Source: a virus
Taxonomy: Duplodnaviria > Heunggongvirae > Uroviricota > Caudoviricetes
DNA length: 23,828 bases
IMG/VR virus record: IMGVR_UViG_2740892229_000023
Direction: 5' to 3' (one strand)
Both the position numbers and the translations under genes were made by a program. Below are positions 1 through 17,246 of the stretch, one piece after another; position 1 is the stretch's first letter, and the number at the start of each line of letters is the position of its first letter. Under the pieces are notes generated by a model. That model had not been told where the DNA came from. It did no database searches and saw nothing but the letters and a program-made list of their open reading frames with translations.

Positions 1-702
1 ATGAAAAACATCGCCGCACAGATGATTAACTTTGACCGTGAGCAGATGCGTCGGATCGCCAACAACATGCCGGAACAGTACGACGAAAAGCCGCAGGTAC
101 AGCAGGTAGCGCAGATCATCAACGGTGTATTCAGCCAGTTGCTGGCAACTTTCCCTGCGAGCCTGGCTAACCGTGACCAGAACGAACTGAACGAAATTCG
201 CCGCCAGTGGGTTCTGGCTTTCCGGGAAAACGGGATCACCACAATGGAACAGGTTAACGCTGGAATGCGCGTAGCCCGTCGGCAGAATCGACCATTCCTG
301 CCATCACCCGGGCAGTTTGTCGCCTGGTGCCGGGAAGAAGCATCCGTTACCGCCGGGCTGCCAAACGCCAGCGAGCTGGTTGATATGGTTTACGAGTATT
401 GCCGGAAGCGCGGGCTGTATCCGGATGCAGAGTCTTATCCGTGGAAATCAAACGCGCACTACTGGCTGGTTACCAACCTGTATCAGAACATGCGGGCCAA
501 TGCGTTGACTGACTCGGAATTACGGCGCAAGGCTGCCGATGAACTTGCCCATATGACTGCGAGAATTAACCGTGGTGAGGCTATACCTGAACCAGTAAAA
601 CAACTTCCTGTCATGGGCGGTAGACCTCTAAATCGTGCACAGGCTCTGACGAAGATTGCAGAAATCAAAGCTAAGTTCGGACTGAAAGGAGCCAGTGTAT
701 GA
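1..702 (+). CDS. P: Replication protein P (DnaB helicase loader), lambda-type
   Basis: 233-aa translation (MKNIAAQMINFDREQMRRIANNMPEQYDEKPQ...KFGLKGASV) matches lambda P from memory in length and sequence; ATG at window position 1. Confidence 0.85.
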   Translation: MKNIAAQMINFDREQMRRIANNMPEQYDEKPQVQQVAQIINGVFSQLLATFPASLANRDQNELNEIRRQWVLAFRENGITTMEQVNAGMRVARRQNRPFLPSPGQFVAWCREEASVTAGLPNASELVDMVYEYCRKRGLYPDAESYPWKSNAHYWLVTNLYQNMRANALTDSELRRKAADELAHMTARINRGEAIPEPVKQLPVMGGRPLNRAQALTKIAEIKAKFGLKGASV

Positions 703-992
703 CGGGAAAAGAAGCAATTATTCATTACCTGGGGACGCATAAGAGCTTCTGTGCGCAGGACGTTGCTGCGGTAACAGGCGCAACAGTAACCAGCATAAAT
801 CAGGCTGCGGCTAAAATGGCGCGGACAGGAATCTTAGTTATTGATGGTAAGGTCTGGCGAACGGTGTATTACCGGTTCGCTACCAGGGAAGAACGGGAAG
901 GAAAGGTGAGCACGAATCTGATTTTCAAGGAGTGTCGCCAGAGTGCCGCGATGAAGCGGGTGTTGGCATTTTATCGCGGCAATTTTCAATAG
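699..992 (+). CDS. ren: Ren protein (Rex exclusion resistance), lambda-type
   Basis: 97-aa translation MTGKEAIIHYLGTH...VWRTVYYRFATREEREGK... matches lambda Ren from memory; ATGA overlap with P stop. Confidence 0.8.
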   Translation: MTGKEAIIHYLGTHKSFCAQDVAAVTGATVTSINQAAAKMARTGILVIDGKVWRTVYYRFATREEREGKVSTNLIFKECRQSAAMKRVLAFYRGNFQ

Positions 993-1029
993 ACTATGTA
1001 CATAAAAATATCATTTTTTTAATACATGT

Positions 1030-1236
1030 CTAATTATTGGACGAAATTGGTTTTTGCTTTGGTTTAGTTAGCCTAGCAATCAAGCCAGAGGCAATAATGA
1101 TGATCCAAGCAATTTGATGCAATGCTACTCCAATATAAGAACCTTTATAGATAATAAAGGCATAGATCGCTAGAAACGAAATAAATATCCATAACGAAAG
1201 TTGATAAATTTTGGCGCGCATATTTAATCCAATCAA
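1030..1236 (-). CDS. Small hydrophobic membrane protein, unknown function (2 predicted TM helices)
   Basis: 68-aa ORF in an AT-rich island; hydrophobic stretches IFISFLAIYAFIIY and IAWIIIIASGLIA. No homolog recognised; start may be ATG 1221 instead. Confidence 0.35.
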   Translation of the reverse strand: MIGLNMRAKIYQLSLWIFISFLAIYAFIIYKGSYIGVALHQIAWIIIIASGLIARLTKPKQKPISSNN

Positions 1237-1477
1237 TCAGAAAGACGAGTAATCATAGAGGTACTATCACCCGGGTAACTATTGCTATTATGAACGGATA
1301 GGATAGAGGCTTCAATAACATATGCATCAAGTATGATGGAATATGTAGGTGAAAATGACTTGTGTCAAATTTGTGGAAATGAGTACCATGTTTCTCTGAA
1401 ATTGATGTCGTTAATGGCTAGTGATAGTGAACTTTTTTACTTTATAATTCCTTTGGTTATAACAATAAGGTAAATTT

Positions 1478-2038
1478 ATGAAGAAGATAATATTATTAGC
1501 CATGATTATTGGTTCTTTAACAGGTTGCGCTAGTGTGCCACCATTGAATTTTTCAACACCTAACGTGGGAGTTAGCCAGAAAAAAATAGATGCTGAAATT
1601 AAGTCATTAACGGTATCACTTGCTCGTCCAGATGAGCAGAAAGGGGATATCACTGCTGGTATGGAGGCTATAACTCCAATTTGGCGTGAATCTTTGCAGG
1701 AAGCACTCGACCGAATGACTATTTTTCGTGATAGTTCACCAAATACGGTTAGCTTAAATGTTAAAGTGTTGGCTCTTGACGTTCCTGCTTTTGGTGTTTC
1801 AATGACAACTAAAGCAATTGCAAGGTATGAAATAATCAACCGTGCGAATGGTGATATTATATATACGCAGGATATTGAGTCTACCGGTACTGTTCCAGCC
1901 AGTTACGCATTCTACGGTATTGTTCGAGCACGCGAATCTGTTAATCGCGCGGTGCAAAACAACATAACGCAGTTCTTGCAAGCATTAGAAAGTGTTGATC
2001 TTTCTCGTCCAATGTTTCCTGTTAGGGTAGCTAAATGA
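1478..2038 (+). CDS. Putative lipoprotein, unknown function
   Basis: 186-aa ORF with signal peptide and lipobox (LAMIIGSLTGC); AT-rich codon usage unlike flanking phage genes. Confidence 0.6.
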   Translation: MKKIILLAMIIGSLTGCASVPPLNFSTPNVGVSQKKIDAEIKSLTVSLARPDEQKGDITAGMEAITPIWRESLQEALDRMTIFRDSSPNTVSLNVKVLALDVPAFGVSMTTKAIARYEIINRANGDIIYTQDIESTGTVPASYAFYGIVRARESVNRAVQNNITQFLQALESVDLSRPMFPVRVAK

Positions 2039-2487
2039 AGCGATTATTCGTAATTGCTCCACTCTTAGTGTTGGTTGGATGCGCACAAAATATATCGCCA
2101 AATAGTTATTCTGTTGGCTCTGTGGGCATGGTTAATCGAACTATCGCTGGTACAGTTATTAGTGCTAGGGGGGTTGATATCAGTGGGACTTCCGCGTTAG
2201 GCGGGACTGCTGGGGCTGCCGTGGGGGCAACCGCTGGTTCTGCGCTTGGTGGGGGAGTTCGTTCTAATATCGTTGGTGCCGTTGGTGGTGCAGTCATTGG
2301 TGGTATTGCCGGGGCAGCAATCGAATCTTCAGCAACAAAACAAACAGGCATGGAATATGTTGTCGAAACTGAGAATGGGAATTTAATGACCATTGTTCAA
2401 GGCAAAGATCCGTTATTTACTCAAGGAAGTAAGGTCCTTGTTTTATACGGAAACCCTTCTCGCATAATAACAGACCCGCGTCACTAA
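2035..2487 (+). CDS. Glycine-zipper outer-membrane lipoprotein (SlyB/Pcp-like)
   Basis: 150-aa ORF with lipobox (LLVLVGC), Gly/Ala-rich zipper (GGTAGAAVGATAGSALGGG...GAVGGAVIGGIAGAAI) and a SlyB-like C-terminus; start overlaps upstream stop (ATGA). Confidence 0.65.
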   Translation: MKRLFVIAPLLVLVGCAQNISPNSYSVGSVGMVNRTIAGTVISARGVDISGTSALGGTAGAAVGATAGSALGGGVRSNIVGAVGGAVIGGIAGAAIESSATKQTGMEYVVETENGNLMTIVQGKDPLFTQGSKVLVLYGNPSRIITDPRH

Positions 2488-2677
2488 CATACCTTTTGAT
2501 TTTGTAAAATCAATTCGTAATAATAAAGTCATCGGAGCTTGAACAACTCCGGTGACTTCTGCGCTAAACGGGGACGTTTATGCGCACATACAATCCAAAC
2601 TCTCTTCTCCCTTCACAGATGCAGAAATGCACCTGCGATTTTTTGCATCCAGCGTCTGACCTCTGCGGAGGTGAAGC

Positions 2678-3133
2678 GTGAACCTACCACAAGATGGCAT
2701 CAAACTGCATCGCGGTAACTTCACCGCTATCGGCCAGCAGATCCAGCCTTATCTGGAGGACGGAAAATGCTTTCGCATGGTGCTTAAACCGTGGCGTGAG
2801 AAACGCAGTCTTTCCCAGAATGCACTCAGCCACATGTGGTACAGCGAAATCAGTGAATACCTCATCAGCAGGGGGAAATCGTTCGCTACCGCAGCATGGG
2901 TAAAAGATGCTCTCAAACACACATACCTCGGTTATGAAACCAAGGACCTGGTTGATGTCGTAACCGGCGAAATCACTACTATCCAGTCGTTACGCCATAC
3001 TTCCGATCTTGATACCGGAGAGATGTATGTCTTCCTGTGTAAGGTTGAAGCCTGGGCGATGAATATTGGCTGCCACCTGACTATTCCGCAGAGCTGCGAG
3101 TTCCAGCTGCTGCGCGACAAGCAGGAGGCGTAA
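2678..3133 (+). CDS. ybcN: YbcN-like nin-region protein (DLP12 YbcN family)
   Basis: 151-aa translation from GTG 2678 ([19 protein letters not shown]...QLLRDKQEA) matches remembered E. coli YbcN. Confidence 0.75.
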
Positions 3134-3303
3134 TGGCTACACCGCTTATTCGTGTCATGAACGGACACATCTACAGAGTACCAAATCGTCGTAAGCGTAA
3201 GCCTGAGCTGAAGCCATCCGAAATACCAACACTGCTCGGATATACCGCTAGCCTGGTTGATAAAAAATGGTTGCGACTGGCAGCAAGGAGGAATCATGGC
3301 TGA
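3133..3303 (+). CDS. ninE: NinE-like small protein
   Basis: 56-codon ORF below the track cutoff ([56 protein letters not shown]); position and C-terminal motif resemble NinE. Confidence 0.6.
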   Translation: MATPLIRVMNGHIYRVPNRRKRKPELKPSEIPTLLGYTASLVDKKWLRLAARRNHG

Positions 3304-3586
3304 TTTGAGAAAAGCAGCGCGTGGTCGGGAATGCCAGGTAAGAATCACTGGCGTATGTAATGGCAACCCTGAAACGTCTGTACTGGCACATATCCGGCTG
3401 GCTGGATTGTGCGGCACCGGTATTAAACCGCCAGACCTTATTGCCACCATTGCCTGTTCTGCCTGTCACGACGAAATCGACCGCCGCACGCATTTTGTCG
3501 ATGCTGAGTACGCAAAAGAATGCGCGCTGGAAGGTATGGCGAGAACGCAGGTTATCTGGCTGAAAGAGGGGGTAATCAAGGCGTGA
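3296..3586 (+). CDS. ybcO: YbcO-like nin-region protein
   Basis: 96-aa ORF from ATG 3296 ([23 protein letters not shown]...), Cys-rich; matches remembered DLP12 YbcO. Confidence 0.75.
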
Positions 3587-3945
3587 ATACTTACCACATC
3601 ACACTACCCTGGCCTCCGAGCAATAACCGCTATTACCGCCATAATCGCGGGCGCACACACATCAGCGCAGAAGGGCAGGCATACCGCGATAACGTCACCC
3701 GAATCATTAAAAACGCAATGCTGGATATCGGCCTGGCTATGCCAGTGAAAATCCGTATTGAGTGCCACATGCCGGATCGCCGTCGCCGTGACCTGGATAA
3801 TCTGCAAAAGGCCGCTTTTGACGCACTCACCAAAGCAGGTTTCTGGCTGGATGATGCTCAGGTCGTTGATTACCGCGTTGTGAAGATGCCTGTTACCAAA
3901 GGTGGGAGGCTGGAACTGACCATCACCGAAATGGGGAATGAATGA
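3583..3945 (+). CDS. rusA: Holliday junction resolvase RusA
   Basis: GTG 3583; 120-aa translation [25 protein letters not shown]...[25 protein letters not shown] matches RusA. Confidence 0.9.
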
Positions 3946-4082
3946 TGTTTGAGTCTTATATGGCAGAGCGTCTTCGCCGCCGCTGGGTGCGCCTGCGCTT
4001 ATATCGTTTTCCTGGTTCTGTTTTGACCGATTACCGGATACTGAAGAATTACGCCAAAACCCTGACAGGAGCAGGAGTATGA
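3942..4082 (+). CDS. ylcG: YlcG-like small protein
   Basis: 46-codon ORF ([46 protein letters not shown]) overlapping rusA stop; conserved position between rusA and Q. Confidence 0.6.
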
Positions 4083-4167
4083 AGTCAGAGATAACAATCA
4101 ACTAATACTATTTTGTTGATTTTTGCTTGTAATTGGCGTTCTGGTCTGATTTTTGTGGAGTAAGTTG

Positions 4168-4551
4168 ATGCGTGATATTCAGATGGTTCTTGAGCGTTGG
4201 GGAGCGTGGGCGGCTAATAATCATGAAGATGTGACCTGGTCGTCCATTGCCGCCGGTTTTAAGGGATTAATTACTTCAAAAGTAAAATCTCGCCCGCAAT
4301 GTTGTGACGATGACGCGATGATCATTTGCGGGTGCATGGCCCGTCTGAAAAAGAACAACAGCGATTTGCACGATTTATTAGTAGATTATTATGTAGTCGG
4401 TATGACATTCATGTCACTGGCAGGTAAGCATTGCTGCTCTGATGGTTATATCGGGAAAAGGTTACAGAAGGCTGAGGGTATAATTGAAGGGATGTTAATG
4501 GCATTAGATATCCGGTTAGAGATGGATATCGTTGTTAATAACTCTAATTAA
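4168..4551 (+). CDS. quuD: Late gene antiterminator Q (QuuD-type)
   Basis: 127-aa translation [24 protein letters not shown]...[16 protein letters not shown] matches DLP12 QuuD. Confidence 0.85.
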
Positions 4552-4740
4552 TATGCCAGTTGTTTACTAAAAGTTATTAAAAATGGGGCGTTGCAACGCC
4601 CCCAAAAATAAAGGGTAATATATAACAGAAGGTTTATATAGTTAGAAGCAAGGTTGTGCTCCTAAAGGAAGTGGCTTGAGGGAGCCACTTATATGTTGGG
4701 GAGGCAAAGCCTCCCGCAACATATCTTTTTCGTAATCAGA

Positions 4741-5838
4741 TTAGAACTGGTAAACCAGACCTACAGCAACGATGTCATCAGTGCTTACACCGAGTGCTTT
4801 AGTGAAGTCATTTTTGTCAAGCAGGTTGATTTTGTAATCAACGAAAGTAGACATATTTTTGTTGAAGTAATAGGTTGCACCTACATCAACATATTTGACT
4901 AAGTCCTGATCGCCCCATACTCCAAGATCCTTACCTTTAGATTGCAGGTAAGCAACGGACGGACGCAGACCGAAATCGAACTGATATTGTGCAACAGCTT
5001 CGAAGTTTTGAGCTTTATTAGCAACGAAGTGATCAGCAAATACAGTCATATTCTGGGTTTCAGAATAGGTAGTGGCCAGGTAAATGTTGTTAGCGTCATA
5101 TTTCAGACCTGCGGCCCAAACTTCTGCATTTTTACCGGAAGCAAATACTTCAGGAAGAACTTTCCCTGCATTAACTTGAGTGTCGGTACGATCAGATTTC
5201 GCATAAGTTGCACCGATACCGAATCCTTCGTATTCATAGGTAGCAGAGAAACCGAAGCCATCACCGTTACCTTCAGTGTAGTTATCGAAATCGCTACGAT
5301 CGTTTTTGCCTTGGTACTGAGCAGCAAAGTTCAGACCATCAACCAGACCAAAGAAGTCGTTGTTACGATAGGTTGCAACACCAGTGGTACGACCAGTCAT
5401 GAACACATCTGTTTGGGTCCAGGTATCGCCACCGAATTCTGGCAGAACGTCAGTCCACGCACCGATGTCGTATGCTACACCGTAGTTACGGCCGTAATCG
5501 ATTGAGCCGTAGTCACCGAATTTCAGGCCTGCAAATGCAAGACGGGTTTTGTCTTTGGAGGAACCTTGAGATTCAGCGCGGTTGCCTTTGAATTCATATT
5601 CCCACTGACCGAAACCAGTCAGCTGATCGTTGATTTGGGTTTCACCTTTGAAGCCAAGACGGGCATAAGTAGTATCACCATCATCTGCATCATTAGAGGA
5701 GAAGTAGTGCTTAGCATTAACTTTCCCGTACAGATCCAGCTTGTTACTGTCTTTATTATAAATTTCAGCTGCCTGAGCAGACATCGCCATCAGTACTGAT
5801 GCAGCTACAGCAGAAATTGCCACTGTTAATTTTTTCAT
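4741..5838 (-). CDS. nmpC: Outer membrane porin NmpC/OmpD family, intact
   Basis: 365 aa with signal peptide ([23 protein letters not shown]), porin beta-barrel motifs and C-terminal ...GLVYQF; lysogenic-conversion moron between Q and lysis genes. Confidence 0.9.
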
Positions 5839-6189
5839 CGTGAGCCCTTTTTTTTGAACTATTATTAAAAAATGATGTCACTGCGCGATAAATATTCATC
5901 TAATCAATGTGATTATTTCAAGATGTAAGTTTTGGTTTCTCGTTTGATTTGTGAAGTAGATCTCTATTTTTATCTGAACTTTTTTCTATCGAATCCTATT
6001 TATAGCTCTTGGCTGAATAAAAATAAATCTATTAGCCAATTTATATTAACGGCTGTTATTTATAAGTGCTCTATAATTTGAAGGTTCAATTTAAATCGGC
6101 TAAAAATAACACTGGAAATTATTTGTTGGTTATTTGTTGAGATTTGCTTATGTATTTGTAGTGGTGTTTTCAATACTCGGTAGCATTCT

Positions 6190-6240
6190 CGCAAATATCA
6201 TTTAGTGGTTTACGTACGTAAAAAATTGGTTATGCTGTTA
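6190..6240 (+). promoter_or_regulatory. Candidate late promoter PR' and Q-utilisation region of prophage 1
   Basis: -10-like TATGCT (6231..6236) just upstream of a short transcribed region ending in a terminator; the block is conserved in inverted orientation at 9395..9460. Confidence 0.35.
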
Positions 6241-6264
6241 AGAGTGGTTACTTCGTCACACAGC

Positions 6265-6299
6265 TTAAACCCGCCGTCGAGCGGGTTTTTCCATTTTTT
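6265..6299 (+). terminator. Intrinsic terminator (tR'-like) upstream of holin
   Basis: Hairpin AAACCCGCCGTCGAGCGGGTTTTT (6267..6290) followed by a T-tract. Confidence 0.55.
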
Positions 6300-6411
6300 G
6301 AGTCTCGATATTAGCTGATAACCCAATACCTGAGTTATTCACTGACTCCGAGTCTGTTACGTTTCGTAGTATTCCCTCAATTTACACCCGCTTTGTCTGC
6401 GAGGTGGGGTT

Positions 6412-6623
6412 ATGAAATCCATGGATAAGTTAACAACGGGTGTCGCCTATGGCACCTCAGCAGGTAGTGCCGGGTACTGGTTTTTACAGCTGCTAGATAA
6501 AGTCACGCCCTCACAGTGGGCGGCAATTGGAGTGCTGGGTAGCCTGGTATTTGGCCTGCTGACGTACCTGACAAACCTTTATTTCAAGATTNNNNNNNNN
6601 NTAAGGCTGCGAGAGGTGAATAA
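6412..6623 (+). CDS. essD: Class II holin (EssD-like), copy 1, interrupted by a 10-N gap
   Basis: [60 protein letters not shown] then N-run; stop overlaps lysozyme start (TAATG). Confidence 0.8.
6592..6601. other. Assembly gap (10 N) inside holin copy 1
   Basis: Run of exactly 10 N. Confidence 0.95.
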
Positions 6624-7120
6624 TGTCGCCATCATTACGCAAGGCTGTAGCAGCTGCTATTGGTGGTGGGGCTGTTGCCATAGCGTCTGTGCTCATCACT
6701 GGTCCGAGTGGTGACGATGGTCTGGAAGGTGTCAGCTACATACCATATAAAGATATTGTTGGTGTATGGACTGTATGTCACGGGCATACAGGAAAAGACA
6801 TCATGCTCGGTAAAACGTATACCAAAGCAGAATGCAAAGCACTCTTGAATAAAGACCTTGCCACTGTCGCCAGATAAATTAACCCATACATCGAAGTCGA
6901 TATACCGGAAACAACGCGCGGCGCTCTTTACTCATTCGTTTACAACGTGGGTGCTGGCAATTTCAGAACATCGACGCTTCTTCGCAAAATAAACCAGGGC
7001 GATATCAAAGGCGCATGTGATCAGTTACGTCGCTGGACATATGCTGGCGGTAAGCAATGGAAAGGTCTCATGACTCGTCGTGAGATTGAGCGTGAAATCT
7101 GTTTGTGGGGTCAGCAATGA
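6623..7120 (+). pseudogene. rrrD: Phage lysozyme (RrrD-like) copy 1 with an in-frame TAA at 6875..6877
   Basis: Frame reads [16 protein letters not shown]...KDLATVAR, then TAA, then continues in the same frame [29 protein letters not shown]...CLWGQQ to 7120. Confidence 0.65.
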
Positions 7121-7301
7121 ACAGAGTAACCGCGATTATCTCCGCTCTGGTTATCTGCATCATCGTCGGCCTGTCATGGGCTGTTAATCATTACCGTGAT
7201 AACGCCATTACCTACAAAGCCCAGCGCGACAAAAATGCCAGAGAACTGAAGCTGGCGAACGCGGCAATTACTGACATGCAGATGCGTCAGCGTGATGTTG
7301 C
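7117..7301 (+). CDS. rzpD: Rz spanin (RzpD-like), N-terminal fragment truncated by gap
   Basis: [61 protein letters not shown] then N-run; ATGA overlap with lysozyme stop. Confidence 0.75.
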
Positions 7302-7311
7302 NNNNNNNNNN
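7302..7311. other. Assembly gap (10 N) joining + strand Rz to the inverted lysozyme copy
   Basis: Run of exactly 10 N. Confidence 0.95.
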
Positions 7312-7554
7312 AGTGGCAAGGTCTTTATTCAAGAGTGCTTTGCATTCTGCTTTGGTATACGTTTTACCGAGCATGATGTCTTTTCCTGTATGCCCGTGAC
7401 ATACGGTCCATACACCAACAATATCTTTGTATGGTATGTAGCTGACACCTTCCAGACCATCGTTACCACTTGGGCCAGTGATTAACACTGATGCTATAGC
7501 AATTGCTCCGCCACCAATAGCAGCAGCAACGGCTTTTCGTAATGATGGAGGCAT
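7312..7554 (-). CDS. Phage lysozyme (RrrD-like) copy 2, N-terminal 81 codons, truncated by gap
   Basis: [39 protein letters not shown]...NKDLAT then N-run; differs from copy 1 at several positions. Confidence 0.8.
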
Positions 7555-7765
7555 TATTCACCTCTCGCAGCCTTGCGCTTATCTTCTTTAATCTTGAAAT
7601 AAAGGTTTGTCAGGTACGTCAGCAGGCCAAATACCNNNNNNNNNNACCTATTGCTGCCCACTGTGAGGGCGTGACTTTATCGAGCAACTGTAAAAACCAG
7701 TACCCGGCACTACCTGCTGAGGTGCCATAGGCGACACCCGTTGTTAACTTATCCATGGATTTCAT
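7554..7765 (-). CDS. Class II holin copy 2, interrupted by a 10-N gap
   Basis: [40 protein letters not shown], gap, then ...[13 protein letters not shown] by reverse-complement reading; a distinct allele from copy 1. Confidence 0.8.
7636..7645. other. Assembly gap (10 N) inside holin copy 2
   Basis: Run of exactly 10 N. Confidence 0.95.
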
Positions 7766-7832
7766 AACCCCACCTCGCAGATGCGGGTGCTGTGTAATGG
7801 AAATAAAAAGGCCACCTGACGTGGCCACCAGA

Positions 7833-8885
7833 TTATTTCCCCACCAGCTCGTTTATCTCTTTCACTGTCTGGTTAAACCGCTCTGACTCAAGCTCAACAC
7901 CTAAGGCCCGACGCCCCAGCGCCATTGCTGCTTTTATTGTGGAACCGGATCCCATAAAAAAATCAGCAACCAGATCACCAGGTCGACTACTGGCATTGAT
8001 TATTTGCCTGAGCATATCCGCCGGTTTCTCACACGGATGTTTACCCGGGTAGAACTGAACGGGTTTATGCATCCAGACATCGGTATAAGGCACGGAGACT
8101 GATACGGAGAAATAGCGCCGGAGAGATTTAAACTCATCCAGCAATTCAGAATATTTGCGATTCAGTGAATCATAAGATGCCACCAGCTGGTGGTGTGGTT
8201 GTTCCAGTTGTTGTTCCTGAAACTTCTCTGCCGCTATACGGGAAAACAGTGCCTGTAACTTCCGATAGTCAGCCTCATTCGGCAACTGCCACTGACTGGC
8301 ACCAAACCAGTGGGAAACCATATTTTTCTTACCTGTGGCTTCGGCAATTTGTTTTGCCGTTATACCCAGTTCGGCACGAGCATCCCTGAAATACGATATC
8401 AGCGGTGCCATTATGTGCTGTTTGAGTTCCCTTTCTTTTGCTGCATAGCCGTCACTTTTGCCGCGATATGGCCCCTGGTAATGTTCAGCAAACAGAACGC
8501 GCTCTGTGGCAGGAAAATATGCGCGCAGACTTTCTTTATTACACCCATTCCAACGTCCGGACGGCTTCGCCCAGATGATATGGTTAAGCACGTTGAAACG
8601 TTCACGCATCATGATCTCAATATCAGATGCCAGGCGATGCCCACAGAACAGGTAAAGGCTTCCGGCAGGTTTTAACACCCGCCAGAACTGGGCCAGACAG
8701 TGGTCCAGCCACTTAAGGTAATCTTCGTCCCCTTTCCACTGATTGTCCCAGCCGTTGGGTTTCACCTTGAAGTACGGCGGATCGGTAACAATCAGGTCAA
8801 TGGAATCATCAGGCAGGGACTGAATAAAATGCAGGCAATCAGCGTTGATTAAATCAACACTGTTTATTTTTACAGTATTTTTCAT
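7833..8885 (-). CDS. Phage DNA methyltransferase (N6-adenine/N4-cytosine family, DPPY motif)
   Basis: 350 aa; motif [11 protein letters not shown] near the N-terminus and motif I FMGSGST near the C-terminus. Confidence 0.85.
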
Positions 8886-9035
8886 GGATCAGTAAGCGTA
8901 ACTCTGGTAGGCTCACTCTGCTTTTGCGCTAAAGCAGTGGGCCGTGGTTCGCTTGTGACCAGTAAGCATGAGCGAATGGCTGGCAGGTGCTACCAACACC
9001 CACCAGCCGCCCATTTTCACAGCAGGAAACCGCCA

Positions 9036-9263
9036 TTACTGGCAGCGTCTGAATTTATTCCCGTACCCGCCGTTATCCTTCGCCAGACCCGCCAGAACTA
9101 ACTGAGTCAGTATTAACTGGCACCGGGCTTCGCTTACTCCGGTAGTTCTCGTCATCATGCGTGGCGTTACCCACTTGTCAGCAGGTAAGAAATGAAGGAC
9201 TGCGGCGGCGGTTTCTGTCATATCTTGCTGTTTTAGCATGTCTTTTTCCCTTCTGGTTAACAT
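9036..9263 (-). CDS. Hypothetical small protein upstream of methyltransferase
   Basis: 75-aa ORF in phage orientation between the late terminator and the methylase; no homolog recognised. Confidence 0.3.
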   Translation of the reverse strand: MLTRREKDMLKQQDMTETAAAVLHFLPADKWVTPRMMTRTTGVSEARCQLILTQLVLAGLAKDNGGYGNKFRRCQ

Positions 9264-9361
9264 GACATACCAATAACTCTTGTCTAAAAAGCCAGCAAGA
9301 TAAAAAGCCAGTATTCACGACCACCAGCGTGTTTACTGTACTGCACCAGGTTTACAGGTAC

Positions 9362-9390
9362 AAAAAAACCGCTCAGCGGCGGGTTTAAGT
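9362..9390 (-). terminator. Intrinsic terminator (tR'-like) of prophage 2
   Basis: Reverse complement gives AAACCCGCCGCTGAGCGGTTTTTTT; homologous to the 6265..6299 terminator. Confidence 0.55.
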
Positions 9391-9394
9391 TGTG

Positions 9395-9460
9395 TGGCGA
9401 AGTAACCACTCTTAACACGATATAATACTTTTTGCGTACGCGTTAGGGTTTTTATAAACT
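9395..9460 (-). promoter_or_regulatory. Candidate late promoter PR' and Q-utilisation region of prophage 2
   Basis: Reverse complement ...CGTACGCAAAAAGTATTATATCGTGTTAAGAGTGGTTACTTCG aligns with 6211..6260 of prophage 1. Confidence 0.35.
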
Positions 9461-9504
9461 ATGCATCCCCATTCTCGCTATCTTTAGTCGGTCCTGGAAT
9501 ACAC

Positions 9505-10431
9505 ATGAAAGTTAGAAGCATAGGATTTACAATAAATAACAATAACAAAAATATTAATACCGTTGACGTAATGAATGCTTTTATCAACGCATCAAACAGA
9601 GAACACAATCGCACAGACTATACTCGTAAAATTCTCATTTCGGATGTGAATGATTTCTATTATGGATTAGTTGTCACATTCAGAAACCAAAAAAAGAACT
9701 GTAAGTCGCAATTTGTTGATGGTAAATTCCAGCTTAAAATTGAAGATCTTCAAGGAAGTGACAAACTTGCTAATTTCAACTTTTTCTTAATTAAAAAATC
9801 TAATCTTTCTGGTCTCTATATGTATCACCACGGTTCATGCAGTCTGAACACTCTCTTTTCTCATTTAGAAACAATAAGTAATGAATTTATCAGAAATCAA
9901 AATAAAGAAGAAATAAAAAAACTTGGTGATAAACCAAAACAAAAAGAAGTAACTGCAATAAATAAAAAATACAAAGAAAGACTGACTTTCAGCCTTATGA
10001 CAAACAAAAACAACATTCAGAGTGTTTTATGTCAATTCAAAGAGATTAAAAGCACAAGCTTTAAATTTAATTATATAGATTTTAAAGGTGGACCAATGAC
10101 TGCGCTTGAACAATTTGTTAACACCACCACAATAGATATGAATTTTAATTCTAGCGACAGAACAAAAGTGCAACAACTATCTCAGAATCTTTCAAATATT
10201 TATAATTCTATGAGTGGAGTTGCTAAAGCACAGGTTATTGCAGTAAACCATGCAGGAATAGAAAAAACCATTGATTTTATGAACTGCCCTGTTTTTTTTG
10301 AAACATACGATTTCGATATAATTGCCGATAAAGTCAATGGATTGACAAACGATAATTATACAACAAACCCTGTTTTTGATATGATAAAAGAAGAAATGCT
10401 GAACGGGACGAATAAAAATGCCTTTATATGA
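9505..10431 (+). CDS. Hypothetical soluble protein, cargo gene A of the AT-rich cassette
   Basis: 308-aa ORF, strongly AT-rich with Asn/Lys-rich composition, opposite in orientation to the surrounding phage genes; no family recognised. Confidence 0.6.
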   Translation: MKVRSIGFTINNNNKNINTVDVMNAFINASNREHNRTDYTRKILISDVNDFYYGLVVTFRNQKKNCKSQFVDGKFQLKIEDLQGSDKLANFNFFLIKKSNLSGLYMYHHGSCSLNTLFSHLETISNEFIRNQNKEEIKKLGDKPKQKEVTAINKKYKERLTFSLMTNKNNIQSVLCQFKEIKSTSFKFNYIDFKGGPMTALEQFVNTTTIDMNFNSSDRTKVQQLSQNLSNIYNSMSGVAKAQVIAVNHAGIEKTIDFMNCPVFFETYDFDIIADKVNGLTNDNYTTNPVFDMIKEEMLNGTNKNAFI

Positions 10432-10966
10432 ATGGCTAATAACTAAAAGATTGAGGTATCAGTACCTTACACTGCTTGCATTCTCGATCCTGGCATTGCT
10501 TGCACTTTACCTATTGTACAGAAACACACCTAAAGTAAGTGTTAACTTTTTTGATTTTTATCATAAAAACTTACGAGGCTATCTCTTCTCCGGTTTTATT
10601 TCCGTGGGCTCATTTTTATTGAGCCTGCATACCTTTGTCATAATAAATTTACGCGATAAGGTTTTTGCAACTCAGGAATATAAGGAAATTTATAGCATTG
10701 CCACTGGTATACCTATTGACAAAATCAATGATAGTGTACTTTATAAACCTTTAGACAATTTATCCTCATTTATTAATACATCAATATTATGTTCTATCAC
10801 AACAGCAATTGCACAATTCACTATTGGACTTTCAACTAATTTATATGCATGCTTATTTTGCGTATGGCTTGCAATGCTAACGGTATTTTTTTTATTACAT
10901 TGCCTCATCATAATCAGACAAAATATTAAAATTTTATTAAAGCAACAGAGAAAAAAAGGGGGGTAA
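10418..10966 (+). CDS. Hypothetical integral membrane protein (about 4 TM helices), cargo gene B
   Basis: 182-aa ORF overlapping gene A by 14 nt; hydrophobic segments LTLLAFSILALLALYLLY, YLFSGFISVGSFLLSLHTFVIINL, ILCSITTAIAQFTIGL, LYACLFCVWLAMLTVFFLLHCLIII. Confidence 0.6.
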   Translation: MPLYEWLITKRLRYQYLTLLAFSILALLALYLLYRNTPKVSVNFFDFYHKNLRGYLFSGFISVGSFLLSLHTFVIINLRDKVFATQEYKEIYSIATGIPIDKINDSVLYKPLDNLSSFINTSILCSITTAIAQFTIGLSTNLYACLFCVWLAMLTVFFLLHCLIIIRQNIKILLKQQRKKGG

Positions 10967-10975
10967 TTCCCCCTA
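10951..10975. terminator. Possible bidirectional terminator between cargo gene B and Q
   Basis: A7 tract, GGGGGG-TAAT-TCCCCC hairpin, then TAATATT; lies between two convergent genes. Confidence 0.4.
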
Positions 10976-10978
10976 ATA

Positions 10979-11323
10979 TTACAACATTGAAAGCACACCA
11001 TCCAGAAAACCAAGAGCTGTTTGCAACTCTTTTCTTATTGTCCCATCAGAACACTTCTGCTTCTTTGCAATAGTTCTTAGTGAGATGCCGATAACAAAAT
11101 GAGCAATAACCAACTCATACTCTTCGGGCTTATATTTCCGCAATCGCGCAACACAGCTGTCAATCATGATTCCTTCATCATCATCGCATTGTTGGCGTGT
11201 TTTCTTTCCATGAGGTAGTAAACCTTTAAACCCTGCAGCAACAGGCTGCCAGTTCACACCACTGTTATCTGCTGCAGCCCATGCACCCCAGCGGTCCAAT
11301 ACTTCATACATATCACGCATCAA
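10979..11323 (-). CDS. Late gene antiterminator Q-like protein (QuuD-family homolog)
   Basis: 114 aa (MMRDMYEVLDRWGAWAAADNSGVNW...QQCDDDEGIMIDSCVARL) parallels the quuD product at 4168..4551. Confidence 0.8.
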   Translation of the reverse strand: MMRDMYEVLDRWGAWAAADNSGVNWQPVAAGFKGLLPHGKKTRQQCDDDEGIMIDSCVARLRKYKPEEYELVIAHFVIGISLRTIAKKQKCSDGTIRKELQTALGFLDGVLSML

Positions 11324-11337
11324 CTTTCTCCACCAAA

Positions 11338-12333
11338 TCAGGCCAGCACGCCAATTGCCAGCGCACGATCGATAAAACGAAATATCAGCTCCAGCTGGGA
11401 GCCATACTTCTCTTCAAATGCCACGGTATCCGCATGCAGCTCGTCGTGATGCTTTCTGCACAAAGGCAACACAAAGAGGTCATGCGCTTTTGTACCCATT
11501 CCCCCCTGACCGTGGCCTATCAGGTGGTGGGGATCATCAGCGGGCTTTCCACAACATGCACACGGCTGTGTCTTAACCCAGCGCGTGTACTTCTCATTAA
11601 CCCAGCGGCGACGTTTTGGGCGTAACATAAAAGACTCCGGCGACTCCGGATCCACTTTCAGCGCCAGCACCTTTTTTGCCTTATCCTGGATGATGCTGGT
11701 GGCAGGAACCGAAGGCACAAGGTCACTTTCCCGGGTGACAGACGGCACAACAGGCTTTGGTAATCTCAGTGCCTTACGGGCTGCACTTTCCGGTAAGGCA
11801 TCCGCCAGGTCATTACGAATCAGCCACCAGCACAGTTCCGGCATTGTCACAACGTGACTATCATCAAAACCGAGGTCCCGACGCACAACAGACAACACCC
11901 AGCGGGCACAGTTATCCGTTGCCATTGATTCCAGCCGTTCCGTGAACTGATCGCGCAGCTGGTTATCACAGTGCCAGCACAGACGGATTGCGCCCGGAGC
12001 GTGTCGCATTGTGGTCATGTTCTCGCTGTGCCAGTCGGAATGAGGCCACTGGCAGCCTTTTTCACGAAGTAACCAGCTTTCAAGACATTCCACGCCACCA
12101 GCACGACGGATCACTGCCTCATTGCGGAACACGGCCCGAACAACAGGATCATCCGCCAGCGGTTGTGATGCCGCGGGAACGGCACCACTGGCGAAAGATG
12201 AATAACGTTCCGGCTCAGGCTCCAGCAGTACACGCCCCTGCATAAACAGGGGCATCAGCTCTGAACCTGGTCTGAACAATACGATCCCCATACGCGGGGC
12301 AATTTCAGGGGTCAGTAGTGCTCTCACGGTCAC
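11338..12333 (-). CDS. Phage protein with C-terminal HNH/zinc-finger-like motif (DUF968-like)
   Basis: 331 aa; C-terminal CACCGKPADDPHHLIGHGQGG...LPLCRKHHDELH motif; sits in the nin-equivalent region before Q. Confidence 0.55.
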   Translation of the reverse strand: MTVRALLTPEIAPRMGIVLFRPGSELMPLFMQGRVLLEPEPERYSSFASGAVPAASQPLADDPVVRAVFRNEAVIRRAGGVECLESWLLREKGCQWPHSDWHSENMTTMRHAPGAIRLCWHCDNQLRDQFTERLESMATDNCARWVLSVVRRDLGFDDSHVVTMPELCWWLIRNDLADALPESAARKALRLPKPVVPSVTRESDLVPSVPATSIIQDKAKKVLALKVDPESPESFMLRPKRRRWVNEKYTRWVKTQPCACCGKPADDPHHLIGHGQGGMGTKAHDLFVLPLCRKHHDELHADTVAFEEKYGSQLELIFRFIDRALAIGVLA

Positions 12334-12334
12334 C

Positions 12335-13165
12335 TCAATGAACGGTATCGAGCAGCTTTAACAGCTCAGGGAATCGGGATTCGAAGAAATGCGGCTGCGT
12401 CTCGCGCGGATTTGCAGGACTGGTAATGTTCTTGCCGAACATGCAGCCTTTCGCCGTCAGCGACCAGAATTTTTTGATGTTGTTAATCGCGGTACGGCTG
12501 TATCGTTCGCGTTGTTCAACGATCCCCAGCTTCGCCATCTGGTGATATGCCTGATTAGCTGTCAGGCGGATACCATACTGTTTCAGCAGTGCACTCAGCG
12601 ACAGCGTAGGGCGACTTGAGCCATCAGGCGCGTCAGCAGGAGCATCAATGGCATAGCGTGGTGCCAGATTCGGTAAGCCAACAGCCTCCTGGAGTTTCTG
12701 ACAGGCCCCAAGCACAGATGAGTTAGACAGGTTTAACTCCCGGCGCATAAAGTCCAGCAGAATCACGCCAGCCTGCATCTTGTCAGCAGCCTGCCCGGAT
12801 AATTTTTCCGGTGCGCTGGTTACCATATCGAAAGTACGGATCACCTTCAGATGGAATGACGGGCTGATCCACATTGCATAGGCATACACCAGTTCTTTGC
12901 AGACATACGTCCCCTGGTTATTTCCGCCACGAATAACGTTAACTGGCTCTATATTGACCGAGTTGCAAATCTGCAACTCGCTTATTAAACGTTCAGTTTG
13001 CTCATTGCGGAGCCAGAATGCAGGCTTATGCTTATCCAGAGAACCGGCAGCCCTGTGCAGATCGTTCAGGCTGTAACGCCCAAAAGCATCACGACGAACT
13101 TCAATACCATCAATGACCATCAGATTATTCATACTTCGTTTCTCCTCTTGATCAGGCGGCTGCAC
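12335..13165 (-). CDS. KilA-N domain protein
   Basis: N-terminal VIDGIEVRRDAFGRYSLNDLHRAAGSLDKHKPAFWLRNEQTERLISEL resembles KilA-N; true start may be ATG 13132. Confidence 0.6.
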   Translation of the reverse strand: MQPPDQEEKRSMNNLMVIDGIEVRRDAFGRYSLNDLHRAAGSLDKHKPAFWLRNEQTERLISELQICNSVNIEPVNVIRGGNNQGTYVCKELVYAYAMWISPSFHLKVIRTFDMVTSAPEKLSGQAADKMQAGVILLDFMRRELNLSNSSVLGACQKLQEAVGLPNLAPRYAIDAPADAPDGSSRPTLSLSALLKQYGIRLTANQAYHQMAKLGIVEQRERYSRTAINNIKKFWSLTAKGCMFGKNITSPANPRETQPHFFESRFPELLKLLDTVH

Positions 13166-13541
13166 CCGCCGTTTTCTCGTACTTACTGATAGTGATCTCG
13201 ACCTTCCCTTCCGGGATAACCGGTCCCCACTCCACCAGCATTCTTTTCACCTGACTGTCGTCTTCCCACACACCCGCGTGGGTCAGGGCGTCAAACAGCG
13301 CCTTGTTATAGTTGTCCAGATCGCGGATCCGGTTATCCGGAGGAAACAACACGATCTCCACTGAAGCAGGTGCCGACGTTGGTTTTGGCAGACGACGTAA
13401 CTGCTCAACTATTGCTGCGCACGCCGCGCTCTGGAATTTTCGCCCCGCCGCGCTTATCAGGCTCTTACCAGCAAACGCCCCTTTGTTGGGGTGTCGCCAG
13501 TACGTGTTCACGCTGGGCGGAAAAGGCAGGATCAGCTTCAT
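13152..13541 (-). CDS. RusA-family Holliday junction resolvase (second paralog)
   Basis: 129 aa MKLILPFPPSVNTYWRH...RDLDNYNKALFDALTHAGVWEDDSQV, similar to RusA at 3583..3945. Confidence 0.8.
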   Translation of the reverse strand: MKLILPFPPSVNTYWRHPNKGAFAGKSLISAAGRKFQSAACAAIVEQLRRLPKPTSAPASVEIVLFPPDNRIRDLDNYNKALFDALTHAGVWEDDSQVKRMLVEWGPVIPEGKVEITISKYEKTAGAAA

Positions 13542-13864
13542 ACTTTCAGGCCCCTCTCATGTAACCAGTGGGTTGCACGCAGCTTTGCGTTTTCCTCACC
13601 GGCAAGCAGTGCGCGGATAATCCCGACCGCCTCGCTGTCGTCGTCCTTCACCGCGGTATGAAGCGTTATCCCCCGGGCCACGCCACGCTTTATCGTGATG
13701 ACGCCTTTTTTCTCCAGTGCACGAAGATGCTCTACCGCTGCATTCACTGAACGGTATCCCAGCATGGTTGCCACCTCCTGATTGGTTGGCGGAAAGCCAC
13801 GCTCTTTCTGATAAGAAATCAGCATATCCAGCACCTGCTGCTGGCATTGAGTTAACGTCGTCAT
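13538..13864 (-). CDS. LexA DNA-binding-domain-like winged-helix protein
   Basis: MTTLTQCQQQVLDMLISYQKERGFPPTNQEVATMLGYRSVNAAVEHLRALEKKGVI resembles the LexA N-terminal domain; no peptidase domain follows. Confidence 0.55.
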   Translation of the reverse strand: MTTLTQCQQQVLDMLISYQKERGFPPTNQEVATMLGYRSVNAAVEHLRALEKKGVITIKRGVARGITLHTAVKDDDSEAVGIIRALLAGEENAKLRATHWLHERGLKV

Positions 13865-14358
13865 TACGCCCCCACGTAATTCCCTGACAGATACCACTCA
13901 TCACTCGATACAGCGCGCTTGCTGCTTTTCCGTAAACACAGCTCACGACGCGCCAGAAAATTGTTTCGTTCTGGCTGGGAGTGGCTTTCACGGAATGCCG
14001 CCATCCACACGGTTGCAGCACGACGGTATAAGCCCCTGGACTCCAGTTCTTCAGCCTGGCGGGTCAGGCACAAAATCACCCGTGGATCGTTAGTACCGAC
14101 ATAGAAATTGCGCACAGGTCTGGTTTCTCGAACTGGTTGTGGTTCCGGTTCCTGCGCTCTCTCAGTCAGGCGCGGGAAATGTCTGCGTGTATCTCCTTCA
14201 CAACGGTGAGCCACACGCCCACTCTGACGTAACTTGCTTGCTGACTGCAGAACGCGCTGCCGTGAGTAACCAGCAAAAGCATCCGCAATGTCTCCGGAAG
14301 TACACCCCGGATGGGCTTCAATGAATTTCTGAACGTCATTTAACAGACTCATGATCAC
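13864..14358 (-). CDS. Hypothetical phage protein (possible PerC-like motif)
   Basis: 164-aa ORF with ATGA coupling on both sides; motif GLYRRAATVWMAAF loosely resembles PerC-type activators. Confidence 0.4.
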   Translation of the reverse strand: MIMSLLNDVQKFIEAHPGCTSGDIADAFAGYSRQRVLQSASKLRQSGRVAHRCEGDTRRHFPRLTERAQEPEPQPVRETRPVRNFYVGTNDPRVILCLTRQAEELESRGLYRRAATVWMAAFRESHSQPERNNFLARRELCLRKSSKRAVSSDEWYLSGNYVGA

Positions 14359-15296
14359 CCCCTGAATCCTGCCGGGATCTGGCTGTAGTCCACGTTGTCG
14401 TAACTGGATTTGAAGTACGGGTCTTCGCGTTTTTCGGTGTACGTGCTTACGGACGGCGATAAGCGCAGGGAAAGCTCATCCCATTTTTCCCGCAGCTTCG
14501 ACGGGCTGAGCACGTTACGGCACCAGAACGGATCGCGGCTGACGCGGCTGTACATCTCGCAGATTTGTTTGTGAGTACGACCATCCTGCACACACATCAG
14601 GCGAATTTCGTTTGCCCAGGCTGTCCAGTTCGGTTCTTTGGGACGAACCACCTCGCCGTCACATTCGGCAGCCTGCTCGTACAGGGCGATGATTTTTTTC
14701 CAGAGCCACTGTGCGCAGGTCAAATCATCCTGCGTCCCCCACTGGCGCTTTTTAGGGCTGAATACAACCGCATCAGGATGGCGAGTTAAAAAATCCTGTT
14801 CAGCCGTCTGCGTGTCCGGTTGCGAAGCGTCCGGACGAGAAGGTTTTTTATCTGACGGATCATGTTTTGATTTTACTGACGGATCCCCGCCAGATTCTGA
14901 CGGGTGAAAACCCGCTTTTTTGCCAGATTTCGACGCATCAAATTTTGACGGGTCAGATTTTGATGCGTCAGATTTTGACGGGTCAGAATCTGACAGTTGA
15001 GAAAATGCCGCTGCCTGAAGCTTCGCAACGTTAAGCTGATAAACATTCGACGCATTGCGGTTACCCTGGCGACGCGCCTTACGCGTTAACCAGCCTTCTG
15101 CTTCCAGCCGTGCGATAGCCGTTCTGACGGTACTCATCCCCGCGCCAATCTGACGGGCAATGGTTTCAATTGATGGCCAGCACACACCTTCGTCATTACT
15201 GAAATCAGCCAGGCGGGCCATAATTGCCACGCTGGATAACTTCATGCCTGATGCAGCGCAACCATCCCATACATAGCCGGTTAATTTAGTGCTCAT
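14355..15296 (-). CDS. Replication initiation protein (lambda O-like N-terminal HTH) containing an internal iteron array
   Basis: 313 aa; N-terminal HTH region (VCWPSIETIARQIGAGMSTVRTAIARLEAEGWL); repetitive SDPSKSDASKSDPSKFDASKS encoded by the iterons. Confidence 0.65.
   Translation of the reverse strand: MSTKLTGYVWDGCAASGMKLSSVAIMARLADFSNDEGVCWPSIETIARQIGAGMSTVRTAIARLEAEGWLTRKARRQGNRNASNVYQLNVAKLQAAAFSQLSDSDPSKSDASKSDPSKFDASKSGKKAGFHPSESGGDPSVKSKHDPSDKKPSRPDASQPDTQTAEQDFLTRHPDAVVFSPKKRQWGTQDDLTCAQWLWKKIIALYEQAAECDGEVVRPKEPNWTAWANEIRLMCVQDGRTHKQICEMYSRVSRDPFWCRNVLSPSKLREKWDELSLRLSPSVSTYTEKREDPYFKSSYDNVDYSQIPAGFRG
14891..14996. repeat. Iteron array (about six 15-bp direct repeats, consensus CAGATTTTGACGGGT): candidate replication origin
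   Basis: Direct repeats cagattctgacgggt, cagatttcgacgcat, caaattttgacgggt, cagattttgatgcgt, cagattttgacgggt, cagaatctgacag, with an AT-richer segment at 14830..14880. Confidence 0.6.
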
Positions 15297-15305
15297 GACC
15301 GACCT

Positions 15306-15644
15306 CTATTTCCCTGAATTTACGACGAAACTGTTCGAGCGGACTGAAGCATTCATGCTCATAACCTTCGCGGAGGTAGATAACCCGTTGTGTTTCCGGC
15401 TCCCAACGAATGACTCTGACGGGCACTCCGTAGTGATCTTTGAACCAGCGGTTAACTTGTCGCAAAGGACTGTCTCCTTCTGCCGGTTGAAATCACCCAC
15501 AGCCCACTCTGCAAAGCTGTGGGTTACAATTTCCCTGTCACCTGGTACATTCACTGCATAGCAATATTCCACCTTCGCTTTTCCACCCGGTACAGGAAGC
15601 GCAATCAGTTGCGAGCGACGGTAGTGTGTTGTTAAACTGTTCAT
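15306..15644 (-). CDS. Hypothetical early-right protein
   Basis: 112-aa ORF between the regulator-like gene and the replication gene; C-terminal portion looks low-quality and may be frameshifted. Confidence 0.35.
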
Positions 15645-16210
15645 GCGTTAGTTTCTCCACAACCAGAAGCAATCGACGCCACGACGCCCGGAGCTGCACA
15701 CTCGCGGGCGTCATTACTTTCTGAAATGCAAAAAATTTTGTAGACAAGTGCTGCATGCTCCTGCAGCTTCGAAATTGAGAGATACAGCTCGTCGTTAATT
15801 GCTGTCTTCTCATGCGGTTCCACTACACCGTCTTCGATTGCTGAACGAATCTGTTTTGAATAACTGCCGATCTGTTCAATGACTTCCAGCAGACGCTGGT
15901 TAATATCGGCGTTGTCCACATCTTCGACGTCAGGAAGAGACACAAAGACGCCATTTGCAGACTGCGCCACAGCATCAGCAATGAAGTGAGTGCCACCAGC
16001 ACGCTGTAAAACCATTGCCCATCCCAGCGGGAAAATCTGATCGCCATCTGCACGAAGGCGGTTGAATAAAGCGTTTTCTGTTACATCGAGCCAGTCAGCC
16101 GCTTCAGCGTAACCACCCGGCAACGCCGCGATAGTTTTTCTGACAGCTTTCACGTACCACTCAGGCTGTTTTTCTACTTTCCAGTGATGCTTACCCACGA
16201 TTAGCCTCAT
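15641..16210 (-). CDS. Early-right regulatory protein (possibly YdaT/CII-like)
   Basis: 189-aa ORF immediately downstream of cro, in the position of cII-type regulators; family assignment from memory only. Confidence 0.45.
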
Positions 16211-16241
16211 CGTTCTGTGGTTAAAAATTGAAAGTGTTCTG

Positions 16242-16442
16242 CTAATCTTTCGGATAGATATCCGGTCTTAAGTCAGATTTCGTAATTGCACCTGACGTGC
16301 ATTGCTCAAGTTTTTTAGCCAGCACAAAACTGGCTTTTTTATAGCCATTGAAAACCAGCCGTAAGTAGCCAGGTGTTGAGCCAACTTTTCCGGCCAACTC
16401 GCCCTGCTGTTCTTTGGTTAAAGAGTCCCAATACGCTTTCAT
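16242..16442 (-). CDS. cro: Cro-like HTH repressor
   Basis: 66 aa MKAYWDSLTKEQQGELAGKVGSTPGYLRLVFNGYKKASFVLAKKLEQCTSGAI... divergent from cI across a palindrome-bearing intergenic region. Confidence 0.7.
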   Translation of the reverse strand: MKAYWDSLTKEQQGELAGKVGSTPGYLRLVFNGYKKASFVLAKKLEQCTSGAITKSDLRPDIYPKD

Positions 16443-16445
16443 ACA

Positions 16446-16517
16446 ATATGTACCTCCGGTGTACATATTACATGATTGAAATGAACCTTCAAGATACTTG
16501 TACCTTAACGGTACAAG
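16446..16517. promoter_or_regulatory. Right operator region (OR) with two palindromic operators between cro and cI
   Basis: ATATGTAC-CTCCGGT-GTACATAT (16446..16468) and CTTGTACC-TTAAC-GGTACAAG (16497..16517). Confidence 0.55.
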
Positions 16518-17243: not shown

Positions 17244-17246
17244 TAC

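Follow-up and report, generated by a model that had tools for sequence, protein, structure and literature searches.

Mirror-image copies of phage holin and lysozyme genes, facing each other head to head, raise the question of whether two prophages were fused in the chromosome of their host or were joined only by the assembler. Such copies were examined in a 23,828-nt stretch of DNA (referred to here as the window), which corresponds to positions 64-23891 of CCPP01000185.1 (31,075 nt; NCBI GCA_000752895.1, a 2014 draft E. coli assembly). This record is a draft 'contig' with scaffold gaps inside. It starts just 63 nt 5′ of the window, within a lambda-type O gene, and its left-prophage piece is a 7.3-kb island with repeats at its bounds. 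The first-pass annotation had described holin/lysozyme copies in mirror image, cut by three N10 gaps, and both the inverted repeats and the N runs were located in the window. The N runs (n = 3) are all exactly 10 N long (6592-6601, 7302-7311, and 7636-7645; gaps 1, 2, and 3, respectively), and no other Ns are present. Three inverted-repeat pairs were found: 6603-6865 versus 7312-7574 (263 nt, 92%), 6396-6530 versus 7647-7781 (135 nt, 97%), and 6546-6591 versus 7590-7635 (46 nt, 100%). When the three pairs were pooled, 25 mismatches were counted among 444 aligned nt (94.4% identity, far above chance), which agrees with the earlier estimate that the copies are about 95% similar and not identical. 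Each copy is also interrupted by an N10 run, as had been noted; both holin genes are broken in this way, copy 1 by gap 1 and copy 2 by gap 3. The features of the region are listed in Table 1. Positions in copy 2 or in a reference that are given in copy-1 window coordinates are marked 'eq.' throughout.

Table 1. Features of the window around the two lysis cassettes.
Feature	Position	Strand	Remark
Left contig: early-right/late-control region of a DLP12-type (argU-site type) lambdoid prophage	1..6591	+	100.0% identity to complete-genome prophages
Left contig genes P, ren, ybcN, ninE, ybcO, rusA, ylcG, quuD (about 4168-4551)	within 1..6591		RefSeq annotation of identical DNA
nmpC-type porin	4741-5838	-	left contig
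Holin copy 1 (class II)	6412-6623	+	interrupted by gap 1; 5′ part 6412-6591 on left contig
Gap 1, N10	6592..6601		colinear; 14 nt from holin copy 1 concealed (AAAGAAGATAAGCG)
Block A: last part of holin copy 1 (to 6623), lysozyme rrrD copy 1, 5′ part of Rz copy 1	6602..7301	+	
Lysozyme rrrD copy 1	6623-7120	+	in-frame TAA at 6875-6877
Rz copy 1, first 185 nt	7117-7301	+	cut at gap 2
Gap 2, N10	7302..7311		sole non-colinear join, between Rz copy 1 and lysozyme copy 2 (reverse complement)
Block B: lysozyme copy 2 (5′ 243 nt) and 3′ part of holin copy 2	7312..7635	-	
Lysozyme copy 2, 5′ 243 nt	7554 down to 7312	-	stops at position equivalent to copy-1 6865; cut at gap 2
Gap 3, N10	7636..7645		colinear; conceals the same 14-k-mer shared node, in holin copy 2
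Holin copy 2	7765-7554	-	interrupted by gap 3; 5′ part 7765-7646 on right contig
Right contig: thrW-site lambdoid prophage read backwards	7646..23828	-	100.0% identity to complete-genome prophages
DNA methyltransferase	7833-8885		right contig
Q	10979-11320		right contig; replication/immunity genes also there
Integrase	21207-22370	+	right contig
tRNA-Thr	22385-22460		right contig
proA	22575-23828		right contig

The identity of the lysis genes was established through domain and reference comparisons. Genes called in the source contig matched PF04971 (holin) and PF00959 (lysozyme), and PF03245 (Rz) was matched on an identical contig. PF06530 (Q) was found 5′ of the cassette on both arms, and identical DNA in RefSeq carries the names essD, rrrD, rzpD, and quuD. 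The gene order, with holin, lysozyme, and Rz lying 3′ of the antiterminator Q, is that of a lambdoid lysis cassette. None of the reading frames is intact: lysozyme copy 1 carries a TAA stop, gap 2 truncates both Rz copy 1 and lysozyme copy 2, and both holin genes are interrupted by N10. The public record already contains a spurious ORF of 126 aa that spans gap 2.

The two arms of the window were then assigned to their parent prophages. The left arm (1-6591) was 100.0% identical over 6591 nt to DNA in complete genomes 13E0767, OkiPb01716, GPEC1222, and EH41; in EH41, this prophage is full-length and lies at tRNA-Arg beside fimZ. The left-prophage references carry P, ren, ybcN, ninE, rusA, quuD, and the nmpC-type porin, followed by essD-rrrD-rzpD. 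The right arm (7646-23828) was 100.0% identical over 16,183 nt to DNA in 2013C-4991 and five other complete genomes, in all of which the prophage is located at tRNA-Thr (thrW)/proA. In these genomes, the corresponding cassette continues in colinear order through rrrD (with an internal stop), rzpD (with a frameshift), iss, terminase, and head and tail genes. The lysis cassette is thus colinear in the reference prophages of both arms. Among the complete genomes listed, none was common to the best-match lists of the two arms. We take the argU and thrW attachment sites to be about 300 kb apart, with the prophages directly oriented, as judged from the K-12 map and in part from the EH41 context. The lambda-type O gene at the start of the scaffold implies that at least a third lambdoid prophage is present in the genome.

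To read the block boundaries, all positions at which the two reference cassettes differ were listed, and every 61-mer of the window was classified against both references. Adding 60 to the last copy-specific site (6531) gives 6591, where the left contig ends; block A ends at 7301 (site 7241 plus 60); and block B ends at 7635, 60 nt past its outermost copy-specific site. Each of these three right-hand ends coincides with the last copy-specific 61-mer, and one value of k (k = 61) accommodates them all. Moreover, block A starts on copy-specific site 6602, the right contig starts at exactly such a site (7646), and both lack their first k-1 = 60 bases. The proposal in the first-pass annotation that the short N-bounded blocks are repeat contigs placed by a scaffolder is borne out by this pattern, in that the starts and ends of the blocks fit copy-specific sites and 61-mers, as expected of repeat-derived graph nodes.

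The same comparison accounted for gaps 1 and 3. Identical stretches between the two cassettes measure 74-142 nt, and the 74-nt stretch that lies between sites 6531 and 6602 corresponds to 14 shared 61-mers. At the site of gap 1, the references and contig L004, in which the same prophage was assembled independently, show 14 nt, and each N10 of gaps 1 and 3 stands for 14 nt that both the other copy and the reference genomes contain. Since the concealed length agrees with the number of shared 61-mers in this stretch (14 each), both gaps are trivial and correct. Consistent with this, comparison with the references showed that gap 1 links left-type to left-type sequence and gap 3 right-type to right-type sequence; in the region of gap 3, 3989 window bases align to 3993 reference bases as one piece. 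Judged from these alignments, gaps 1 and 3 are small, correct, colinear gaps and are harmless. Shared nodes of 14 k-mers were left unresolved by the assembler and nodes of 33-34 k-mers were threaded; block B itself is composed of 33 shared and 231 copy-specific 61-mers.

With regard to the software, Velvet prints scaffolds as node 'descriptors' without the k-1 prefix, and fills in at least 10 N where it finds no clear path. The missing prefix of block A and of the right contig presumably reflects scaffold printing of this style. The likeness extends to the ends placed at a variant ± (k-1) and to the fixed N10 written for a true 14 nt. The window departs from de Bruijn 10 N gaps at short repeats in that gap 2 joins inverted nodes, for which colinear-repeat read pairs should give no support. 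SPAdes is unlikely to have been the assembler, given that variant + 60 ends would require an even K; contig L004, in contrast, ends at 7241 + 77, which is the SPAdes pattern. Database masking was rejected as the origin of the Ns, as N10 replaces 14 nt at gaps 1 and 3 and length is therefore not kept. A literature search on the accession and on the 10-N convention of Velvet found nothing.

Block A was found to be a mosaic of alleles from both prophages. It carries left-prophage alleles at 22 sites in 6602-6772, right-prophage alleles at 6875, 6886, 6893, and 7025, and left-prophage alleles again at 7168, 7215, and 7241. The TAA stop lies in a right-type stretch and is also found in rrrD of 2013C-4991. 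Block A was found at 100% identity in no complete genome, the best match being 99.4% (4 mismatches). In block A, the two right-type stretches form bubbles 79 and 61 k-mers long, and the left-type stretches, which were retained, measure 231 and 134 k-mers; bubble collapse in Velvet is limited to 100 by default. The right-prophage alleles in block A may therefore have arisen through consensus collapse of the two copies, which the short bubbles would fit. The mosaic was also considered as proof of such collapse, and in this role it was weakened by L004, which was assembled independently and displays nearly the same mosaic (the exception being T at 7168, such that L004 switches back one site later). 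Real gene conversion is a possible alternative origin of the mosaic. Compared with the essD-rrrD-rzpD cassette of DLP12-family prophages, the window has the same gene order 3′ of Q and an nmpC-type porin, and flanks that are 100% identical; it differs in that its copy stops in Rz at the gap, has a TAA in the lysozyme gene, and carries a mosaic found in no complete genome.

Gap 2 is a different matter. Continuous sequence through the join, as a real fusion would provide, was not found; 10 N alone occupy 7302-7311, and no base crosses from one side to the other. The arrangement was therefore sought in other genomes. Both arms were found in one place in 0 of 5,426 complete E. coli genomes. The head-to-head arrangement was absent from the 10 longest contigs listed with the right-hand module, all of which showed holin-lysozyme-Rz followed by packaging genes. 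Among 5.8 billion protein clusters, no fusion ORF was found that joined the Rz N-terminus to antisense lysozyme (all three frames) or the lysozyme N-terminus to antisense Rz (one long-tailed frame only). A junction pattern with a spacer of 0-30 nt gave no match in collections of species-representative genomes and metagenome contigs, and no inverted microhomology of at least 8 nt was found near the predicted junction. The join thus recurs in no independent genome searched; a strain-private event would escape all of these searches.

The left end of block B did not follow the rule that governs the other ends. Block B matched the thrW prophage of 2013C-4991 at 100% identity and the left-prophage reference at 93%, and its left end at 7312 (eq. 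6865) coincides with no site at which the two copies differ. Among the other rrrD alleles aligned, none had a suitable variant at 6865/6926. According to the logic of Velvet-type printing, the block B node would run 60 hidden bases further, and the two-prophage model leaves its stop unexplained. Because this end lies off the copy differences, an extra cause is needed, such as a breakpoint, an IS insertion, or a third copy. As to the latter two, an IS insertion or a third lambdoid cassette may have produced this end. In other strains, two rrrD N-termini were found fused to one shared foreign tail, and our reading of this tail is that it is an IS end. An IS element within gap 2 itself is unlikely, given that the gap was printed at minimum size.

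A rearrangement at the same nucleotide was encountered elsewhere. The best match of the fusion search (P0001) was located on L024, a 1.03-Mb contig of GCA_949281715.1. In this contig, the cassette is followed, in direct order, by eq. 7225-7447, then by eq. 6866-7314, and then by a deletion that extends to the region 3′ of iss. The L024 breakpoint in the lysozyme gene (eq. 6865|6866) is the same nucleotide as the end of block B, and its Rz truncation (eq. 7314) falls at the place expected for a real junction in the window, if one exists. Neither L024 junction was found in complete genomes, and a widespread lysozyme remnant that starts at eq. 6866 was accordingly rejected as the sequence behind the end of block B. 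The coincidence could be due to chance (roughly 1 in a few hundred), to a fragile site, or to another assembly problem.

Taken together, we lean towards the view that the join at gap 2 does not represent the chromosome, a view that includes links supplied by a minority or chimeric molecule or by a third copy. Positions 6592-7645 would then be no genetic element; they probably consist of four de Bruijn graph nodes (k = 61) linked across 10 N gaps of minimum size. The nodes would have been cut by a short-read assembler from two 94%-identical lambdoid lysis cassettes, one of the DLP12-type prophage and one of the thrW/proA prophage, and, on other contigs, both prophages probably run on colinearly through Rz, bor/iss, and the packaging genes. 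The link across gap 2 probably came from a few aberrant read pairs, from a minority or chimeric molecule, or from confusion with a third lambdoid cassette. The location of the join is informative in this respect. Since the argU and thrW sites are taken to be about 300 kb apart and directly oriented, a genuine fusion would require illegitimate inversion, both breakpoints of which would have to fall in the same 1-kb homologous cassette, and a join at just this spot would be expected naturally from an artefact at repeats. The first-pass annotation had regarded the junction as a probable scaffolding artefact. The repeat-node character of the blocks and the failure to find the join in any comparator speak for that claim, and an artefact is the more probable origin of the join. 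Gaps 1 and 3 are correct colinear joins, and the claim leaves the inverted link and the left end of block B unaccounted for, such that an artefact is probable rather than demonstrated. Forward-reverse read pairs from colinear cassettes yield same-orientation links only, and a link from block A to an inverted block B is not expected from them; moreover, Velvet requires at least 5 read pairs by default for a scaffold link. Going by the Velvet algorithm, we found no way in which scaffolder error alone would turn block B round.

These last observations are where a fixed fusion has its strength. Under this explanation, the scaffold is right: the left prophage was broken in Rz just past 7301, the thrW prophage was broken past eq. 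6865, and the two were joined head to head through illegitimate recombination, most simply by an inversion of about 300 kb, or, had the prophages been neighbours in convergent orientation, by a deletion, with gap 2 being a short shared node. The end of block B, the inverted link, and the minimum gap would all be covered by this one assumption, in part on the basis of how the Velvet scaffolder behaves. The treatment of shared nodes is also in its favour, in that those of 14 k-mers remained as gaps 1 and 3 and those of 33-34 k-mers were threaded. Further points in its favour are the rearrangement of L024 at eq. 6865|6866 and the rrrD N-termini with a foreign tail, which show that this gene does break. 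Against it, the join is crossed by no sequence, is absent from every comparator searched, and has no inverted microhomology at the predicted junction; two illegitimate breakpoints about 440 nt apart in the same cassette, in prophages about 300 kb apart, would be a very unlikely coincidence. We therefore consider it unlikely, though still a serious contender, that the scaffold is right in this sense, and we hold with equal reserve that a fusion of Rz (about 7301-7320) to reverse-complement lysozyme eq. 6865 is real in this strain.

An inverted Rz/lysozyme junction could also have been real in the sequenced DNA, though formed elsewhere than between these two prophages, and have been phased to the wrong flanks via short shared nodes, an explanation that we regard as improbable. 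Sources of such a junction would be a fold-back or small local inversion from eq. 6866 to about 7314 inside a single cassette, a rearranged remnant of a third prophage, or minority DNA of induced phage. Fold-back/template-switch inverted junctions, such as those of Salmonella tandem inversion duplications, usually form at short inverted repeats. The window resembles them in its head-to-head join, the two sides of which are only about 450 nt apart in cassette coordinates. The scaffold start in an O gene, with the third lambdoid prophage that it implies, and the fact that the assembler left shared nodes around the join unresolved also fit this explanation. In contrast to fold-back junctions, however, the window has no inverted repeat of at least 8 nt near the join, and its sides carry alleles of different prophages. 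With left-type alleles in Rz and right-type alleles in lysozyme, an additional phasing error would be required, and a third cassette is hypothetical. A fold-back chimera of one locus was rejected as a simple explanation, as 25 of 444 positions distinguish the arms and each arm matches a prophage of its own.

Homologous recombination between the cassettes, as in the prophage-mediated chromosomal inversions of E. coli, can be dismissed with near certainty: the window shares with such inversions two homologous lambdoid prophages (here with cassettes 94% identical and exact stretches of 74-142 nt) and a join in shared late genes, but an exchange would give a hybrid colinear cassette, as the first-pass annotation had rightly argued, whereas here no hybrid is present and both 5′ halves are kept, facing each other with an offset of about 440 nt.

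The finding is of use chiefly for data hygiene. Read literally, the scaffold implies a head-to-head fusion of two truncated prophages, and errors could follow in the calling of prophage boundaries, in tallies of defective prophages, and in analyses of synteny. A scaffold of this kind can be audited without reads: comparison of block ends with the sites at which the copies differ gives the k of the assembler, and also tells harmless gaps (gaps 1 and 3 in this case) apart from the single join worth checking (gap 2). If the fusion were true, lysis would have been disabled in both prophages by a strain-specific event, either illegitimate inversion of about 300 kb or a rearrangement comparable to it. 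Together with the rearrangement of L024, a true fusion would also hint at a breakage hot spot in the lysozyme gene at eq. 6865|6866.

Lysozyme copy 1 was found to contain an in-frame TAA at window 6875-6877, where DLP12-type references carry CAA. The alleles at 6875-6877, 6886, 6893 and 7025 of this gene were those of the thrW prophage, and the thrW-prophage rrrD of the complete E. coli genome 2013C-4991 is annotated with an 'internal stop'. This allele mosaic was absent from all complete genomes searched. Draft contig L004, an independent assembly of the DLP12-type prophage, repeated the mosaic, but with another switch point (7168). The mosaic arose through either consensus collapse or gene conversion.

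In contig L024 of an independent draft genome, a lysis cassette was rearranged in direct order; in copy 1 cassette numbering (eq.), its segments ran ..7447 / 7225-7447 / 6866-7314, followed by a deletion reaching downstream of iss. The product of this rearrangement, P0001, was a 266-aa Rz-Rz-lysozyme fusion. The lysozyme breakpoint (eq. 6865/6866) fell at the identical nucleotide in L024 and at the end of block B, whose inverted lysozyme copy 2 fragment is joined to Rz copy 1 by gap 2. Both L024 junctions were absent from all complete genomes searched. The public record of the window also contains a gene call over gap 2, which begins at the lysozyme copy 2 start, crosses the N10 run and then continues antisense to Rz; this ORF is spurious, a product of the scaffold.

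Positions of the gene calls and of the rearranged cassette
Feature	Location	Strand	Details
126-aa gene call in public record	window 7174-7554 (L003 7237-7617)	minus	
N6/N4 DNA methyltransferase	window 7833-8885	minus	350 aa; PF01555
HTH_36 replication-type gene	window 14355-15296	minus	313 aa
Rearranged lysis cassette	L024 5272-6995 (CASDNH010000006.1, GCA_949281715.1, ~545.0-546.8 kb)		protein P0001

Two proteins from other strains, P0127 and P0168, consisted of rrrD-type lysozyme N-termini with an identical foreign tail, WICPYISRHLLSLNPLQARCRRYSRGER, joined at differing positions; judged from these sequences, one mobile element appears to have inserted more than once into the rrrD-type gene.

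Outer inverted-repeat pairs were also detected at 6213-6290 versus 9363-9440 (83%) and at 4151-4214 versus 11274-11337 (75%), so that homology between the two prophages reaches the segment upstream of each holin and the Q gene starts. The segment upstream of the holin contains, at ~6271-6292, a GC-rich hairpin and, after it, a T run. At its left end, which precedes window position 1, CCPP01000185.1 (L003 1-63) opens within a lambda-type O gene, 63 nt ahead of P. The piece of the left prophage thus spans just ~7.3 kb and has repeats at both borders, which implies that the same genome carries at least one more lambdoid prophage whose O segment is identical.

Within the HTH_36 gene, a 15-nt unit (CAGATTTTGACGGGT-like) occurs four times in tandem, overlapping, at window 14924-14998; these repeats resemble prophage-origin iterons within an initiator gene. 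The thrW-prophage methyltransferase gene lies between the holin and the late-control region, whereas the DLP12-type prophage has only ~100 nt there; the late operon of the thrW prophage carries this gene as a moron-like insertion.
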